A DNA stretch of 55,227 nt from a virus (lineage: Duplodnaviria > Heunggongvirae > Uroviricota > Caudoviricetes): IMG/VR virus record IMGVR_UViG_2718218434_000004, positions 1-55,227 of that record; one strand, given 5' to 3'. Under the pieces are notes generated by a model. The model was not told the origin of the DNA. It saw only the letters and a list, made by a program, of their open reading frames with translations, and searched no databases. The position numbers and the translations under genes are program-made. Shown here piece after piece: positions 9,036-53,859 of this stretch. Positions within the stretch are counted from its first letter, which is position 1, and each line of letters starts with the position of its first letter.

Positions 9036-9884
9036 GTGCCACCTCCATGCGGATACGACCAGCAAAAAAGCAGATGTGATCGCGCACCAGAGAACGGCGA
9101 GCATCGCGTTCAGACTCGGCAGCAATATGATGAATTTTGGCGGTAATTGTCGGGCAATCGCGGCGAACTGCGGCGATAATCCAGATAAATTGCGTTTTTT
9201 GGGTAGGGGTAGTAGCCAGCATGTGGCAGCCTCCTTCAGATAGCAGGTTACGCTACCACCGGAAACGCCAATTTCGCTGGTGGTAGCCCAGACAGGGTTG
9301 GCGTAACCGGCTCTGAAGGATACCGGCGCTTCCGAAGAAGCCCCCGCCTGAGCCACCATTGATTGACAAAGGCGCTGGATTATACACCAACGCCCAAAAA
9401 ATGGGTGAGTCAGACCTACGACATAAAAAAAGACGCTCGGCGCGTCATATGTCGCCTTCAGAATTTTCAGGACGCCAATCCCGGCACCCGTTTTATGAGG
9501 TGCCTTATAACCATAAACCGTGTTGCCGCATAACGGCAAGCTCTTTTTTATGGACTCCGAAAACTCACTATTGGAAGAACCAGAAGCACAGTACATCGCG
9601 CTCATTTCGTTAACGTCACGCGCGTGGACGAAGGTTTTTGTGGAGTCACTACACGAGCAGAGAAAGCCATCTACGACCAGAAATTCTCTGGCATAGCCGC
9701 TGACCTTCTCAACGCTAACACCATCGACCGTAATTTCTGACATAGTTAAGGCATCCGCTCCTACCACCAGCAAATGATAAACTTTGCTTGTATCTGCTGT
9801 ATTAATGTCTGACTTTGCTGTCATATTGCTGGATTTTGGCGACATACCAGCCAGTGAAAATATCTTCTTCTGGGCGGTTAGCAT
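9036..9884 (-). CDS. hypothetical protein, 3' boundary uncertain (possibly frameshifted)
   Basis: N-terminal about 160 aa of ORF 8817-9884 look protein-like; the central part is Cys/Trp/Pro-rich like out-of-frame translation. Confidence 0.25.
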
Positions 9885-10147: not shown

Positions 10148-10886
10148 TTAACGTGATATTGGTGCTTTCGAGATATGAGAGGTGCTCAAGCTGTTCTGCG
10201 TTCATATGGTCGCGAGGTTCGCCAGAATAGCCATTTATCCGCGCCCACTGCTTAGCAGTTAGCCCACCAAGAACGATACGAGAAATCATATTGCTCTCGT
10301 TTGTGTAGTGGTGTTGCTGCGTCGTTTTCCCCATCTCGGCACGGGCCATATTCAGCGCATCGCACATTGGCTTAAAGTTGTTTGCGGCACTGATACGGGC
10401 TTTTAGCTGGCGACGATAGCGGGCGGCGATTTCAGGCACGCTACGCTGTAATTCTTCCTCGCACTGGATGAAATAACGACGGATAGCGCGACCCTGATCA
10501 TTGCGTTCGATCATTGCCAGTTCTTTCGCCATTCCGACACTTAACAGATAGTCTTTGCCGGGTCTGCCAGACTGCTTAATCTTGCTGTAAGCCGCGCCAT
10601 TCGGGCTTTTCCCCAAATTTGGGGAAATTGTTTTATGGACTGAGTAATCGTGCCCAATGGTGAAGTCATATTCAGAGATGCGATCAGTGATCCATGTAGA
10701 GAAGTCTTTTCCCACGCCCAACGCTTTGTGTAACGCTTTTGCGCTAACAATATTGGTTTCACGCCCACCGATATGACCAGGAATAACCGGGACAATTGCG
10801 GCAAATTCATTACCGTTAATTGTGCCCAGAGAGGCGTTCAGATGAGGGGCAGCCTCAGAAATTAATCTGCTTTTTTCGATGTTCAT
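10053..10886 (-). CDS. phage antirepressor (AntA/AntB N-terminal plus KilA-C type)
   Basis: 277-aa ORF; sequence pattern consistent with Ant/KilAC antirepressors (recalled, not searched). Confidence 0.55.
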   Translation of the reverse strand: MNIEKSRLISEAAPHLNASLGTINGNEFAAIVPVIPGHIGGRETNIVSAKALHKALGVGKDFSTWITDRISEYDFTIGHDYSVHKTISPNLGKSPNGAAYSKIKQSGRPGKDYLLSVGMAKELAMIERNDQGRAIRRYFIQCEEELQRSVPEIAARYRRQLKARISAANNFKPMCDALNMARAEMGKTTQQHHYTNESNMISRIVLGGLTAKQWARINGYSGEPRDHMNAEQLEHLSYLESTNITLIDMGMEYEQRKGELTRLSQRWLAKRLEAVHV

Positions 10887-11662: not shown

Positions 11663-11960
11663 ATAGTCAGATTGTTTTGGTTTGTTTGCTCCACAAGGGT
11701 AGAGCTACCCTGCATTTCGGCAGGATCACGCTATTAGGCGTGACATCCAGTAGTTTTAAAGAACAATTGCGCTTTGTCAGCGCCAAAGCCTGTTAAAGAA
11801 CATTCCGCTTTTCAGCAGCGTAGAAGGCTCAATACACCTTCGTTTATAAAAGAGCGATTGCCCTTCTCCAGGGCTAACTGTTAAATAGCAATCCTCTGTG
11901 AGTTTTTATCAATCTACTCCCCTATACTTTAGTAAACCTCTGTATACTTGTCCAGTTGTT

Positions 11961-40055: not shown

Positions 40056-40336
40056 TATTGCCTCAGATGATCAACCAGACGTGCAACGTTGCCTCTGACG
40101 GACACCAGCACGGAAAGAAAAATAGTATTAGCCACGATAATGGGCCATGAGGAATGGGGATAAATCCCACAGAGATAGGCCAACGGAACAGCACTGTATG
40201 TAACAGTAATCAGCCAGGCTAAACGTGAAACCCAAGGACGATGCCGCGAATCACCACGACGATAAAACATCAGAGTAATAACAACACAAGCACATAACAG
40301 CGCATTTATAGTTGCTGTCGGGTCATTTAGCTCCAC
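40055..40336 (-). CDS. holin
   Basis: 93-aa membrane protein immediately upstream of the endolysin. Confidence 0.6.
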   Translation of the reverse strand: MELNDPTATINALLCACVVITLMFYRRGDSRHRPWVSRLAWLITVTYSAVPLAYLCGIYPHSSWPIIVANTIFLSVLVSVRGNVARLVDHLRQ

Positions 40337-40709
40337 CTGAACCTCCCCGGCGCGTTATGAGCGCCACCAGCGAGCCGATATCCTGATTATTCAGGAACGT
40401 CAGGATTTTAACGGCTAAAGCAGAGACGATTACGGCACCAATAGCATCCAGAGGTTTATCACTGTATCCGGTCAAGTTCGCCAGCTTGGAGCCAACCAAC
40501 CCAGAGCAAAGGATCCCGGCAATATATGACACGATAAAATATGCCAGTCGGCGCGATGCACTCAGATCTGCTGCTGTTGCTATGTAGAATACAGCCCCTG
40601 CAAATGCGCCAAATACAACGCCGTAATCAGTTCCGGTCAGCAGTCCATAAACACTGGCACCCGTCAGGGCACCACCAGCCAGCCCAGTACCGGAAATCGG
40701 ATCGGACAT
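40323..40709 (-). CDS. holin-like membrane protein
   Basis: 128-aa Gly/Ala-rich multi-TM ORF at the start of the lysis cassette. Confidence 0.5.
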   Translation of the reverse strand: MSDPISGTGLAGGALTGASVYGLLTGTDYGVVFGAFAGAVFYIATAADLSASRRLAYFIVSYIAGILCSGLVGSKLANLTGYSDKPLDAIGAVIVSALAVKILTFLNNQDIGSLVALITRRGGSGGAK

Positions 40710-41196: not shown

Positions 41197-41955
41197 TTAT
41201 CTCGTCACTTTTCTTAATTGCGCCTCAGCATATGCTTCTTCCTGCCAGCACTTTGTAACCAGTTTATCAATGACATCTGCATATCCTTTGTACCACTGAT
41301 AATCCGTCAGGTCTGGTACCAGCTTCTGGACATGATGCCGCGCCAGTGTGGTTGGTAAACGGCTAAACCGGTTTCCATTGCAACGCCCACAAATCTTATA
41401 AACAGGCGTGCCATGAAGCCGGGTCCTTTTTTCATCCAGGACAATACCTTTACCCTTACACCCTCTGCACGCTGTGCTGACTTCTCCCTTACCATGACAA
41501 TGCTGACATAGTTCCTTCACCCACTCCTCCTTGATAACAGATTCACCGCTTCTGGAGTGTTTCAACACTTCGCGCAATACATTATGAAATCCAGTACCAG
41601 CACAATGCTCACAGCGAGCCTTACTTGCCGCAGACCTGGAATAATCAGCAAAGGCAAAATTCACAAGGTAAGGGATGATCTGTAACCGGGTTTCTTCACT
41701 CAATTTATTCAATGTCGGGTTATCCAGTGCCATCGCGTAATTGAGCAGACCTTCAATCGCAAACTGAGGATCCTGAACACCAACTTTTGCCAGGAATAAG
41801 GCAAAACCCAGTGGTGCTTTCGACTGCACCATCCCCTGCGCAGCCATCACATCCGTAATCGTTAAACCACCAGAGCCTGTCGCCGGTGCGTCATCGCTCA
41901 ATTTTGGAGATTTTGGGGAGTAATATTTTGGTAAGGCTTCAAGGTTCATGCTCAT
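41197..41955 (-). CDS. antitermination protein Q
   Basis: CEHCAGTGF...CQHCHGKGE...CRGCKGKG zinc-binding motifs; position just before PR'/lysis. Confidence 0.75.
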   Translation of the reverse strand: MSMNLEALPKYYSPKSPKLSDDAPATGSGGLTITDVMAAQGMVQSKAPLGFALFLAKVGVQDPQFAIEGLLNYAMALDNPTLNKLSEETRLQIIPYLVNFAFADYSRSAASKARCEHCAGTGFHNVLREVLKHSRSGESVIKEEWVKELCQHCHGKGEVSTACRGCKGKGIVLDEKRTRLHGTPVYKICGRCNGNRFSRLPTTLARHHVQKLVPDLTDYQWYKGYADVIDKLVTKCWQEEAYAEAQLRKVTR

Positions 41956-47807: not shown

Positions 47808-48482
47808 ATGAAAACAATCCATGACATCCGGCGGTCTAACGCCAGAAAACTGAGAGATGGTGTTGGCGGGAATTCTTCCTTTGCCACTATGATTGATCGC
47901 GAGCCAACCCAGACCAGCAGGTTTATGGGAGATGGTGCTACTAAAAATATCGGTGACAGCATGGCACGACACATCGAAAAATGTTTCGACCTGCCTGTCG
48001 GATGGCTCGATCAAGAACACCAGACAACGAACATCACAAAAAAACCTGATGTTTCAATCACTAATAAACAAATCACATTAGTCCCTGTCATATCATGGGT
48101 ACAGGCCGGAGCATGGAAAGAAGTTGGATATTCTGAGGTTGATTTGAGCACAGCAGAAACGTATCCCTGCCCTGTCCCCTGTGGGGAAATGACTTATATC
48201 TTGCGGGTGATAGGTGATTCAATGATTGATGAGTACCGCCCGGGAGACATGATTTTTGTCGATCCTGAAGTACCTGCCTGCCACGGTGACGACGTTATTG
48301 CATTGATGCACGATACAGGTGAAACCACCTTCAAAAGGTTGATAGAAGATGGGACACAGCGTTATCTCAAAGCGTTAAACCCAAACTGGCCTGAGCCTTA
48401 CATTAAGATCAACGGTAATTGCTCTATAATTGGTACAGTGATTTTCTCAGGAAAACCAAGAAGATACAAAATCAAAGCCTAA
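47808..48482 (+). CDS. cI: CI-like repressor (HTH plus S24 LexA-like peptidase domain)
   Basis: 224 aa; C-terminal GDSM...KR S24 autocleavage region; divergent from cro. Confidence 0.8.
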   Translation: MKTIHDIRRSNARKLRDGVGGNSSFATMIDREPTQTSRFMGDGATKNIGDSMARHIEKCFDLPVGWLDQEHQTTNITKKPDVSITNKQITLVPVISWVQAGAWKEVGYSEVDLSTAETYPCPVPCGEMTYILRVIGDSMIDEYRPGDMIFVDPEVPACHGDDVIALMHDTGETTFKRLIEDGTQRYLKALNPNWPEPYIKINGNCSIIGTVIFSGKPRRYKIKA

Positions 48483-48493
48483 TCAATGTTTAT

Positions 48494-48518
48494 GAACCTG
48501 CTTCGGCAGGTTTTTTTA
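48494..48518 (+). terminator. rho-independent terminator after cI
   Basis: ACCTGC-ttcg-GCAGGT followed by TTTTTTT. Confidence 0.55.
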
Positions 48519-48521
48519 TAC

Positions 48522-48549
48522 TTGACAATGTACCTTTGAGATACATAAT
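48522..48549 (+). promoter_or_regulatory. PL-like promoter (TTGACA-16-CATAAT) with overlapping operator ATGTACC...TACAT
   Basis: Near-consensus hexamers; the ATGTACC half-site matches the OR operators. Confidence 0.5.
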
Positions 48550-48716
48550 GTACCCAAGAGAAACAACAAACAGGCAGGACGTCCACGAAGTAGCCCCCTG
48601 GAGCATATGAAGTCCAGGATGATTCGTTAGCAACAAAAAAGCGCCCTACAGGACGCTTAGCTCTTTAACAATCTGGTCCCCATCAACAAGTAACTGATAA
48701 CTTGAGGAGGTGTGAA

Positions 48717-48923
48717 ATGCACAAAACAGAACCCAAAATCGTCGCGCCTGGCTACACAGATGAGGAAATTTATGAGTGGATGACAAAGAAGCTGGCAGCT
48801 ATAAACCAGCTTCGTGAAGTGCTGTCTTATCGACAGGAAACAATAGACTCCTTAAAAAAACTGGATCAGGAAATCACGGTTTTATCACAGGATGTTACTT
48901 TAGATATTGTGCAGACAAATTAG
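48717..48923 (+). CDS. small coiled-coil protein, first gene after the PL-like promoter
   Basis: GAGGAGG RBS 6 nt before ATG; 68 aa; no Arg-rich motif. Confidence 0.45.
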   Translation: MHKTEPKIVAPGYTDEEIYEWMTKKLAAINQLREVLSYRQETIDSLKKLDQEITVLSQDVTLDIVQTN

Positions 48924-49344: not shown

Positions 49345-49396
49345 GTTGTTGGGGATAACCAGATTAACCGAATCCTTGTTGTTGGGGAATAACCAG
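49345..49396. repeat. direct repeats GTTGTTGGGGATAACCAG (49345-49362) and GTTGTTGGGGAATAACCAG (49378-49396)
   Basis: Two near-identical 18/19-mers 33 bp apart, just upstream of the 144-aa gene start. Confidence 0.45.
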
Positions 49397-49599
49397 GTCC
49401 ACCTCGCCTGATGTGGCTAAAAGCAGGCACATAACAGCTAAGTATTTTCAACCAGAGAGAATCCTTAGCGTTGTGGTGAATGCTGCTCAGCGCACGCGGG
49501 TTAAGGTTGAGGCTGACAGTCGACCTTCTGTGGATACCCACCCGCCTGGTGTGCAACCTTCGCCAGGCACCGGGAGGCACCCGGCACCCGGCACCACAA

Positions 49600-49760
49600 C
49601 TTTATGCTGTGTGTAGTCCTGGCGGTACCAGCTTGTACCCTTGCTTCCGGCTGGTACCGTCCTTTTTACAAAACAGAGAAGAGCATCACCGGACGACGGG
49701 CTCATAACCCAATCCATCCGGGCGGCTGCCACCGCAGGTGTTCTTCTCTGTTTTGTGGAG
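49600..49760 (+). other. GC-rich structured region with nested inverted repeats (candidate leader, terminator or ncRNA)
   Basis: 15-bp perfect inverted repeat ACAAAACAGAGAAGA (49668-49682) / TCTTCTCTGTTTTGT (49742-49756); 9-bp pair GGTACCAGC/GCTGGTACC (49624-49632, 49650-49658). Confidence 0.3.
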
Positions 49761-49804
49761 AAACTAATCGGCCTTGCAGGGTCGATATGATGAGGAGCAG
49801 CAAA

Positions 49805-50167
49805 ATGGCTAGCGAACGCAGTACTGATGTGCAGGCATTTATCGGGGAGCTGGACGGCGGCGTATTTGAAACCAAAATCGGCGCAGTTCTCAGTGAAGTC
49901 GCTTCCGGTGTGATGAACACGAAAACCAAAGGTAAGGTCTCAATCAACCTGGAAATCGAACCATTTGATGAGAACCGTGTGAAAATCAAACACAAACTCT
50001 CATATGTTCGCCCGACTAACCGCGGGAAAATTTCCGAAGAAGACACCACCGAAACGCCGATGTATGTCAATCGCGGTGGTCGCCTGACTATTCTGCAGGA
50101 AGACCAGGGACAGTTACTGACTCTTGCCGGTGAACCTGACGGAAAACTCCGCGCAGCAGGTCGTTAA
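49805..50167 (+). CDS. yfdP: YfdP-like hypothetical protein
   Basis: GAGGAG RBS then ATG at 49805 gives 120 aa, the length recalled for YfdP; precedes the yfdQRST-like genes. Confidence 0.45.
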   Translation: MASERSTDVQAFIGELDGGVFETKIGAVLSEVASGVMNTKTKGKVSINLEIEPFDENRVKIKHKLSYVRPTNRGKISEEDTTETPMYVNRGGRLTILQEDQGQLLTLAGEPDGKLRAAGR

Positions 50168-52379: not shown

Positions 52380-52729
52380 TGGAGCCATACAGCCTCACAC
52401 TCGATGAGGCCTGTCATTTTCTCAAGATATCCAGACCGACTGCCATTAACTGGATACGCACAGGGCGTCTTCAGGCAACACGCAAAGATCCCACTAAGAA
52501 TAAATCTCCTTACCTCACAACACGACAAGCCTGCATTGCGGCGCTTCAGTCTCCGCTGCATACTGTCCAGGTGAGCGCGGGTGATGGCATAACAGAGGAA
52601 AGAAAATGTCACTCTTCCGCAGAGGTGAAATATGGTACGCCAGTTTCACATTGCCGAACGGTAAAAGATTTAAACAGTCTCTTGGAACAAAGGACAAAAG
52701 GCAGGCGACAGAACTCCATGACAAGCTAA
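52379..52729 (+). CDS. xis: excisionase (P22 Xis-like)
   Basis: Start at [37 protein letters not shown]; overlaps the integrase start. Confidence 0.7.
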
Positions 52730-53769
52730 AGGCTGAAGCATGGCGGGTCAGCAAACTTGGTGAAATACCTGATATAACGTTCGAGGAAGCGTGTGTCAGG
52801 TGGCTTGAAGAGAAAGCACATAAAAAATCACTGGACGATGACAAAAGCCGGATCGGATTCTGGCTTCAACATTTCGCAGGAATGCAACTAAGAGACATTA
52901 CTGAATCAAAAATTTATTCAGCAATGCAGAAAATGACGAACCGGCGTCATGAGGAAAACTGGAAACTCAGGGCAGAAGCATGCAGAAAAAAAGGGAAACC
53001 TGTTCCAGAATACACGCCAAAACCAGCGTCCGTTGCAACGAAGGCTACGCATCTTTCATTTATAAAGGCCCTACTAAGAGCCGCAGAGCGTGAATGGAAA
53101 ATGCTGGATAAGGCACCAATTATTAAAGTGCCTCAACCAAAGAATAAACGGATCCGCTGGCTGGAGCCCCATGAAGCACAAAGGCTGATTGATGAATGTC
53201 CGGAGCCATTAAAGTCTGTTGTTGAATTTGCACTGGCAACAGGCTTAAGACGCTCGAACATCATCAACCTTGAATGGCAACAAATAGATATGCAGCGCCG
53301 GGTGGCATGGATAAACCCGGAAGAGAGTAAATCAAACCGCGCAATTGGCGTTGCGCTGAATGATACTGCATGTCGCGTATTGAAAAAACAAATCGGGAAT
53401 CATCACCGTTGGGTATTTGTGTACAAGGAAAGCTGTACCAAACCAGACGGAACGAAAGCGCCAACAGTAAGGAAGATGCGGTATGACGCAAACACAGCCT
53501 GGAAAGCGGCGCTGAGACGGGCTGGTATTGATGATTTCAGATTTCACGACTTGAGACACACCTGGGCAAGTTGGCTGGTTCAAGCCGGAGTCCCGTTGTC
53601 AGTTTTACAGGAAATGGGAGGCTGGGAGTCTATCGAAATGGTTCGTCGATATGCTCACCTTGCACCTAATCACCTTACCGAACACGCACGGCAAATAGAC
53701 TCGATCCTGAACCCATCGGTCCCAAATTTGTCCCAGTCAAAAAATAAGGAAGGTACTAATGATGTGTAA
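52606..53769 (+). CDS. int: tyrosine integrase (P22-type, thrW-specific)
   Basis: 387 aa; [35 protein letters not shown]-terminus; C-terminal [10 protein letters not shown]...Y region; ends 15 bp from thrW. Confidence 0.9.
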
Positions 53770-53781
53770 CTTATTGATTTT

Positions 53782-53829
53782 AATGGTGCCGATAATAGGA
53801 GTCGAACCTACGACCTTCGCATTACGAAT
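53782..53829. repeat. att site: 48-bp thrW 3'-end repeat (tRNA-proximal copy)
   Basis: Identical to 13339-13386. Confidence 0.85.
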
Positions 53830-53859
53830 GCGCTGCTCTACCAACTGAGCTATATCGGC
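53784..53859 (-). tRNA. thrW: tRNA-Thr (anticodon CGU)
   Basis: 76-nt reverse complement GCCGATATAGCTCAGTTGGTAGAGCAGCGCATTCGTAATGCGAAGGTCGTAGGTTCGACTCCTATTATCGGCACCA folds as a cloverleaf with CGT anticodon and CCA end. Confidence 0.9.

Follow-up and report, generated by a model that had tools for sequence, protein, structure and literature searches.

Locus and Architecture of the Element

The DNA analysed here, hereafter the window, comprises 55,227 nucleotides (positions 1 to 55,227 of IMG/VR virus record IMGVR_UViG_2718218434_000004, Caudoviricetes) and carries, between an S24 repressor gene and yfdP, a GC-rich and highly structured element. Positions 49399-49804 form the untranslated leader at the head of the early-left (PL) operon of the prophage. 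The core of the element belongs to the STnc100/PasD superfamily of prophage RNAs, within which it is divergent and placed differently; this identity is secure. The order on the plus strand is repressor, terminator, PL, an open reading frame (ORF) of 68 amino acids (aa), a reversed moron, the structured element, yfdPQRST, integrase and tRNA (Table 1), with the repressor, CII, Q, holin and integrase named by Pfam and the tRNA by Rfam. yfdP is followed by yfdQ (DUF2303), yfdR and yfdS, with xis-int in the same early-left run, and the CII and replication genes are oriented opposite to this operon, as are Q and holin. Transcripts across the element are likely to originate at PL, whose promoter sequence is found in identical form 3' of cI in SfV; no sigma-70 promoter-like site was found directly 5' of the element, either by promoter scan or by eye.

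A first-pass annotation had described a GC-rich segment at 49400-49790 with nested inverted repeats, direct repeats and no protein-like ORF, and had proposed either a nut/terminator complex of the leftward operon or a structured noncoding RNA. The composition was confirmed, with GC fractions of 0.575-0.585 over 49400-49700 versus 0.34-0.43 in the adjoining moron, and the element was found to be real, with an extent slightly larger than proposed (~49399-49804). The 15-bp perfect pair (ACAAAACAGAGAAGA, 49668-49682, and TCTTCTCTGTTTTGT, 49742-49756, with 59 nt between copies) is the perfect portion of the 25-nt arms of a long hairpin, Y', which are 84% complementary, and the 9-bp pair (GTTGTGGTG/CACCACAAC, 49470-49478 / 49592-49600) coincides with the closing stem of the core, P1. 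A further inverted repeat of 10 bp (CGGTACCAGC/GCTGGTACCG, 49623-49632 / 49650-49659) coincides with the terminator stem, and the direct repeats of the GCACCCGG type are a 7-nt tandem duplication within GCACCCGGCACCCGGCACC (49577-49595). The plus strand of 49440-49800 folded to -155.4 kcal/mol (z = -4.39, with none of 100 shuffles as good), and the minus strand gave z = -3.60.

Table 1. Positions of the element, its parts and the neighbouring genes in the window.
Feature	Position	Strand	Basis or remark
S24 repressor gene	47808-48482	+	Pfam
Repressor terminator	48494-48513		Just 3' of repressor gene
PL-like promoter, TTGACA-16-CATAAT	48522-48549	+	Promoter scan, 11/12 matches
68-aa ORF, PHROG 1744	48717-48923	+	PHROG of unknown function; no Pfam match
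Moron, 144 aa, PHROG 5286		- (reversed)	RefSeq 'ECs1072 family phage-associated protein'
Small hairpin GCCUG...CAGGC, then ACAUAAC	49406-49435 (arms 49406-49410 / 49424-49428)	+	Fold
Flanking hairpin Y, CAUAAC-GCUAAG...CUUAGC-GUUGUG	49430-49475	+	Fold
Core domain, 131 nt, five helices and pseudoknot, STnc100-like	49470-49600	+	Rfam, model R1, covariation
P1, 9-bp closing stem	49470-49478 / 49592-49600	+	
P2	49481-49494	+	
P3	49496-49501 / 49540-49545	+	
P4	49546-49549 / 49563-49566	+	
P5, CCGGG-AGGCA-CCCGG	49570-49584	+	
Pseudoknot, AAGGUUG (just 3' of P3 5' strand) with CAACCUU (P4 loop)	49503-49509 / 49554-49560	+	
7-nt tandem duplication CACCCGG	49585-49591	+	Rare allele
Linker UGCUGUGUGUAGUC between core and terminator	49605-49618	+	Conserved
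Predicted intrinsic terminator: 10-bp stem CGGUACCAGC/GCUGGUACCG, 17-nt loop, UCC, UUUUU (49663-49667)	49623-49667	+	
Long hairpin Y' (25-nt arms 49668-49692 / 49732-49756)	49663-49761	+	Inverted repeat and fold
Small hairpin	~49767-49786	+	Fold
Shine-Dalgarno GAGGAG	49792-49797	+	Sequence
yfdP start codon	49805-49807	+	K-12 yfdP annotation begins at homologous ATG
yfdP	49805-50167	+	
Integrase	52606-53769	+	Pfam
tRNA	53787-53859		Rfam
Q	41197-41955	Opposite to early-left operon	Pfam
Holin	40323-40709	Opposite to early-left operon	Pfam

The core is closed by GUUGUGGUG / CACCACAAC and encloses four internal hairpins, P2-P5. The base of the flanking hairpin Y uses the 5' strand of P1, so that the two pairings are mutually exclusive; equivalents of Y with other sequences were found in ST64B, Cronobacter phiES15 and the Klebsiella-type loci, and an exact 6-nt complement upstream of the core was present in 26 of 162 contexts versus ~3% expected by chance. 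The small hairpin 5' of Y resembles the last hairpin and 3' closing strand of an upstream core copy, and the block around it is nearly identical in phiES15 and similar in SfV, with a 'hairpin + CACACAAC' arrangement at the matching position of the Klebsiella-type relatives. The 7-nt duplication is accommodated either as 7 extra nt separating P5 from P1 or in a larger P5 loop. It is absent from all 21 relatives aligned with the window. The E. coli matches listed number 20, of which 19 have a span of 474 nt and the remaining one has the 481-nt span of the window.

On the 3' side of the core, the linker is unpaired between helices by inspection, and the minimum-energy fold of 49601-49672 (-26.3 kcal/mol, z = -3.94) pairs its last few bases. 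This linker is kept in SfV, ST64B, phiES15 and locus L107 while the terminators that follow it differ. The window terminator was passed over by a consensus terminator scan, its loop being longer than 8 nt. In the minimum-energy fold, the terminator U-tract pairs with GGAGA at 49757-49761 and lengthens the hairpin Y', and the hairpin at 49660-49765 reached -51.2 kcal/mol (z = -7.76). The Y' stem of ST64B still pairs, with A-U in place of G-C at one position and wobble changes at two, and Y' is a plausible candidate for an RNase III processing site ahead of yfdP.

The view that no protein-like ORF is present had to be qualified, since ORFs of 67-187 aa overlap the region; they are, as proposed, not conserved as coding sequences. 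A 7-nt indel disrupts the ORFs overlapping the element, and in a near-identical genome the PGAP annotation gives a 'frameshifted hypothetical protein' over 49473-49790; that genome is the one of the 20 listed E. coli matches that carries the duplication. In SfV (L127 1641-2321) and ST64B (L002 2597-3235) the yfdP frame is open for ~100 codons upstream through the structured leader, and the open frame 5' of yfdP uses different frames on homologous nucleotides in the two. Such open but inconsistent frames invite spurious N-terminal extensions or hypothetical ORFs, and annotation pipelines leave the region blank or place spurious ORFs there.

Membership in the STnc100/PasD Family

The proposal of a structured noncoding RNA was borne out by covariation across relatives and by a reciprocal covariance-model match to the STnc100 family. 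An E-value scan of Rfam with a 3-kb search matched RF02076 (STnc100) at 49448-49670 with 32 bits (E = 1.7e-4), over the full length of the model (positions 1-206 of 206), terminal hairpin included and with GGUGAAU and CACCGGGAGGCACCCGGCACC matched. The gathering threshold of RF02076 (47 bits) was not reached, and a scan of the whole window at gathering thresholds returned no STnc100. The homologous elements of phiES15 and ST64B scored 40.6 and 35.1 bits, respectively, against the same model.

In the reverse direction, ~57 relatives, mostly of the Klebsiella-like type, were collected from viral contigs by a scan for the 5' core motif, and a covariance model (R1) was built from 19 Klebsiella-type relatives only, with a hand-drawn structure. 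This model matched the window at 49470-49602 with 53.3 bits (E = 4.9e-12), phiES15 with 81.2 bits (E = 2.7e-19) and ST64B with 66.7 bits (E = 1.6e-15). It also found the canonical STnc100 located 75 nt 3' of stx2B in phage P13374, an O104:H4 Stx2 phage (32.1 bits, E = 1.5e-6), followed by a second Stx phage (25.6 bits) and mEp460 (18 bits, E = 0.0072). The HK022 immunity region (L001), which holds putL and should hold putR, was not matched by R1, and no second core copy was found in the window by R1 with filters off, including the PR and late leaders. The relationship with STnc100 is reciprocal but distant.

The window copy shares with STnc100 and PasD the closing stem, the GGUGAAU segment, several internal hairpins ending in CACCGGGAGGCACCCGGCACC, and a prophage-borne location within a phage operon, on its sense strand; in the window type, the core is followed by a predicted terminator. 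It differs from STnc100 in its Rfam score of 32 bits against the 47-bit threshold, and from both in its linker or seed sequence, in its long flanking hairpins and in its location in the early-left leader between repressor and yfdP. The canonical position of STnc100/PasD is the late region, between Q and holin or after stx2B (bioRxiv 10.64898/2026.05.13.724894), and in the window Q and holin lie 8 kb from the element, with no copy beside them. The family is thereby extended from the late region to the early-left leader. PasD1 and PasD2 are abundant, northern-validated, Hfq-bound small RNAs related to STnc100 (bioRxiv 10.64898/2026.05.13.724894). Other identities were considered and rejected: DicF scored at chance level (15.9 bits, E = 4.9), PasB sits within structural genes, and ARAGORN found no tRNA-like or tmRNA-like element.

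Covariation Support for the Fold

Conservation of the stems in homologues, for which the first-pass annotation had suggested a covariance analysis, was found as compensatory changes in the helices and in the pseudoknot. Pairing statistics were obtained from a 46-sequence model alignment, with the caveat that the alignment used to count the nested helices had been fitted to the model. In this alignment, 92.8% of cells pair, versus 35-46% with the partner columns slid, and 14 pairs change on both sides, versus 7.8 +/- 1.4 in shuffles, with compensatory changes in P1, P2 and P4. The pseudoknot lies outside model R1, and 6 of its 12 pairs change on both sides (e.g., A-U to G-C at three positions). 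It recurs across subfamilies with unrelated sequences, such as AGACUGACA/UGUCAGUCU, AGCUGGC/GCCAGCU, AAGGCUG/CAGCCUU and numerous others. When a broader range of genomes was taken, 3.79 of the 5 outer base pairs of P1 formed, versus 2.99 +/- 0.07 with shuffled partners, and 23 distinct fully paired P1 combinations were counted. Read on the minus strand, the frequent G-U pairs would turn into A-C mismatches, so the plus strand is the RNA strand; the U-tract likewise fits the plus strand only. The invariance of P5 and GGUGAAU is partly a matter of ascertainment, since both served as search anchors, and divergent members of the mEp460 type have a different P5 hairpin. The family thus gains a covariation-supported, five-helix pseudoknotted fold, and no pseudoknot is mentioned in the sources cited here.

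Distribution and Modularity

At least 80% of the 481-nt leader was found in 1609 of 5426 complete E. coli genomes. The leader is modular: part A, with the core, is common to SfV, SfII, SfIV, ST64B (83% identity) and Cronobacter phiES15 (72%). Part B is made up of the terminator, Y' and the beginning of yfdP; it recurs at 92-96% identity in many other lambdoid and Stx2c phages, where a different sequence precedes it. Where the window has its terminator, ST64B and phiES15 each have a stem of unrelated sequence with a U-tract behind it, which suggests that termination there is a selected feature and that the downstream genes need read-through. The phiES15 terminator ends ~20 nt before the ribosome-binding site of kil, which would make kil expressible by read-through only.

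A scan of one genome per species gave at least 120 loci in Escherichia, Salmonella, Klebsiella, Kosakonia, Pantoea, Erwinia, Rahnella and other genera, and tandem copies (two or three) occurred in 12 of 183 arrays. When the arrays were classed by the upstream gene on the same strand, 41 followed a cI-type repressor (PL leader), with a terminator detected 3' of the core in 8 and early-left genes thereafter, and 20 followed a Q gene (PF03589, PF06530 or DUF1133), with a terminator in 14 at a median of 49 nt and then holins or a KdgM-porin moron. With its succession of core, linker and terminator, the window copy looks like the late-leader form moved to a PL leader.

Both contexts occur together in viral contig L007, which carries three STnc100-like copies, a tandem pair at 262-686 on the minus strand and one in a PL leader at 10175-10296 on the plus strand. 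The pair follows a PF06530 Q gene and precedes an ORF that looks holin-like by eye. The first copy of the pair begins just after a TAAAAT -10 box, and a terminator follows the second. The closing stems of the three copies covary (ACUACGGUG, GCUGCGGUG and GUUGUGGUG). The Klebsiella-type PL leaders, as seen in L022, L035, L044, L062, L099 and L101 over the 500 nt 5' of the core, are untranslated modules of 0.5-1 kb with a small conserved ORF of ~45 aa, then a GCUGUGU and terminator unit, and then alternating CACAAC-hairpin-GUUGUGG units, in which these closing-stem sequences recur around variable hairpins. These units enclose varied structured domains, for example an mEp460-type core followed by an STnc100-type core, and in the long leaders each GUUGUGG is able to pair upstream or downstream.

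Proposed Function

The favoured explanation, to which a probability of roughly 0.55 was assigned, is that the element is an STnc100/PasD-type RNA of the PL leader with its own terminator, which would supply a small RNA in the lytic phase and attenuate early-left expression. From the arrangement of core, linker, terminator and Y' we infer the following course. Once the repressor is inactivated, transcription from PL would cross the 68-aa ORF and the moron, the latter in antisense, and then the core. A fraction of the polymerases would stop at the terminator and release an RNA of ~200-240 nt, and the 3' hairpin and U-tail, which form the usual Hfq-binding module of such RNAs, would serve this purpose here, with the linker UGCUGUGUGUAGUC as a putative base-pairing seed for targets. 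As no promoter is evident, the 5' end would be made by processing in or near the flanking hairpin Y. Polymerases that read through would pass Y' into yfdPQRST-xis-int, and Y', acting as an RNase III site, may separate the small RNA from the mRNA. The early-left genes of lambdoid phages are dispensable for lytic growth and partly toxic, which makes attenuation without dedicated antitermination coherent. The element offers a testable handle on the control of toxic early-left genes in lambdoid phages without N.

Precedents for such an arrangement exist. Lambda LPR1, which has its end at tL2a within the PL operon, is specific to the lytic cycle, and lambda 6S RNA is also Hfq-bound (bioRxiv 10.1101/2024.10.31.621285), while StxS is made by PR'-tR' termination (PMC7547250). 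As proposed for the window, LPR1/PreS, 6S and StxS are short RNAs that end at an intrinsic terminator in or at the head of a PL or PR' operon, where that terminator also holds back transcription of what lies beyond it as long as polymerase does not read through (bioRxiv 10.1101/2024.10.31.621285; PMC7547250). Unlike the element, they are 60-190 nt long, and a conserved multi-helix pseudoknotted domain is undescribed for them in the cited sources; no sequence or structural homology was found or expected. In lambda and the Stx phages, moreover, the read-through is performed by the N and Q proteins.

Several observations weigh against the small-RNA and attenuation reading. An RNA started at PL would be ~900 nt long, so a putative processed 5' end is needed, and the search of the window for a target of the linker seed returned chance-level matches only. 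For a small RNA acting by base pairing, a core of five helices with a pseudoknot and near-invariant segments is more than would be required. The terminator itself is atypical, with a 17-nt loop and 3 nt between stem and U-run, and 33 of the 41 PL-leader relatives have no detectable terminator after the core. The CPS-53 prophage of K-12 is without the element. Finally, the 7-nt duplication may impair this particular copy, which scored 53.3 bits against R1, compared with 68.5 bits for SfV, which is free of the duplication.

Alternative Explanations

A less likely alternative is that the core is more than a base-pairing small RNA, namely a leader domain, widespread in phages of Enterobacterales, that contacts RNA polymerase, a Nus-type factor or a small ligand and governs how polymerase elongates or terminates where the PL and PR' operons begin. 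If this were true, the domain would be an RNA-based alternative to N, mechanistically distinct from put, and the CACAAC-hairpin-GUUGUGG modules would form a chain of mutually exclusive helices setting the switch. A core acting on the transcription machinery would represent a second kind of phage antiterminator RNA.

It is rather unlikely that the element acts in the manner of HK022 put, as a cis-acting processive antiterminator RNA whose core rides with the polymerase past the terminator at 49623-49667 and later terminators, replacing N. The position, in the PL leader and 5' of a terminator and a long operon, is that of nutL and putL, no N-like gene was found in the prophage, and, as in HK022, a structured RNA in the early-operon leader of an N-less lambdoid phage is followed by a terminator. 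The complex fold with near-invariant segments, the presence of relatives in the two leaders of lambdoid antitermination (after cI and after Q) and the dependence of downstream genes such as phiES15 kil on terminator read-through point the same way. Nevertheless, blastn against the HK022 immunity region gave short matches of 9-17 bases (E >= 0.9) and R1 gave none, so that homology with put was rejected. Five helices and a pseudoknot stand against the two stem-loops and ~70 nt of put, which starts close to PL (PMC9378689). HK022 has put copies in both early operons, whereas this prophage has a single STnc100-like copy and none in the PR operon. In addition, ST64B and the Klebsiella-type leaders have a terminator 5' of the core, beyond its action, the late-leader copies coexist with Q proteins of three families that already antiterminate, and family members accumulate as free Hfq-bound RNAs.

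Improbable as well is a riboswitch-like sensor, in which the core would bind a metabolite, an ion or a host factor and set the efficiency of the terminator, thus gating the early-left genes or, in relatives, the late genes. Its build is aptamer-like: several helices meet at a junction with conserved nucleotides, the stems covary and a pseudoknot is present; a terminator follows within ~25-50 nt in the window type and in 14 of the 20 late-leader arrays, and tandem copies (12 of 183 arrays) are known from some riboswitches. No conserved alternative pairing between core and terminator was found, however, by eye in three terminator types, most PL-leader relatives have no terminator after the core, and the associated genes (yfdP, kil, holins and porin morons) share no metabolic theme.

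It is very improbable that the segment has no RNA function and is instead a leftover of GC-rich DNA, a short coding gene, or a site that acts at the DNA level, such as one bound by protein or a boundary of recombination. Such a view could draw on the hypothetical ORFs called by PGAP and some phage records and on the CACAAC / GTTGTGG words that flank variable cassettes like module boundaries, but the coding and DNA-level readings were rejected, being opposed by the compensatory changes in P1, P2, P4 and the pseudoknot, by reading frames that are not conserved and are inconsistent between SfV and ST64B, and by the tolerated 7-nt indel, and to these are added the G-U pairs tolerated on the plus strand only and the detection of the family across Enterobacterales by structure-aware models.

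The nut/terminator complex proposed in the first-pass annotation was upheld in its PL-leader position and in the predicted terminator at 49623-49667, and not in the nut site. No N-like protein was found, the sole ORF between PL and the element being the 68-aa ORF of PHROG 1744, which by inspection has no arginine-rich N terminus. Within 49400-49790 there is no boxA match at up to 2 mismatches and no boxA-boxB pair, and a lambda-type nut site was therefore rejected. The element resembles lambda nutL in its PL-leader position and in having a terminator to be passed, and differs in that the perfect boxA lies ~800 nt upstream of it, in a different cassette. An rrn-type boxA in the 3' arms of the flanking hairpins was likewise rejected as a family feature, as GCUCUUU occurs in few relatives and GCTCTT in 6 of 162 contexts.

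Additional Observations in the Window and Its Relatives

The perfect rrn-type boxA, GCTCTTTAACAA, is located at 48660-48671 on the plus strand, ~110 nt 3' of PL, after a hairpin and before the 68-aa ORF, and is unique in the window at 0 mismatches. Among ~250 loci, a perfect boxA on the strand of the core was present in one E. coli locus only, 815 nt 5' of the core, as in the window. This boxA could recruit Nus factors and protect the ~880-nt untranslated stretch to yfdP from Rho. Three boxA-like near matches, with 2 mismatches each, lie within 100 nt at 11790-11889 on the minus strand.

The first ~80 nt of the PL transcript (AACAGGCAGGACGCCCACGAAGUAGCCGCC...) are common to the window (48556-48630), SfV (L127 960-1040) and ST64B (L002 2160-2240), and in ST64B this start runs on into a GC-rich untranslated leader of 290 nt with its own terminator, 5' of the element. 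The 68-aa ORF and the 144-aa moron converge, with an overlap of 29 nt at 48895-48923, and the minus-strand terminators of the moron lie within or past the 68-aa ORF. Directly 5' of the start codon of the reversed moron, two direct repeats of ~19 nt (GGGGATAACCAG...), 34 nt apart, occupy 49345-49403. A very similar repeat pair was seen in viral locus L112 beside an apparently different reversed ORF (by eye, the ORF being putative), and the repeats may be a portable moron promoter or a motif of its 5' untranslated region.

Elsewhere in the window, C4 antisense RNA (79.9 bits) and isrK (67.8 bits) were matched by Rfam at 9276-9363 and 9426-9503, respectively, on the minus strand, beside an Ash-family ORF. 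These RNAs and the Ash-family ORF are a P1/P7-type c4-ant module, and isrK is also present in ST64B, near the immunity region of that phage.

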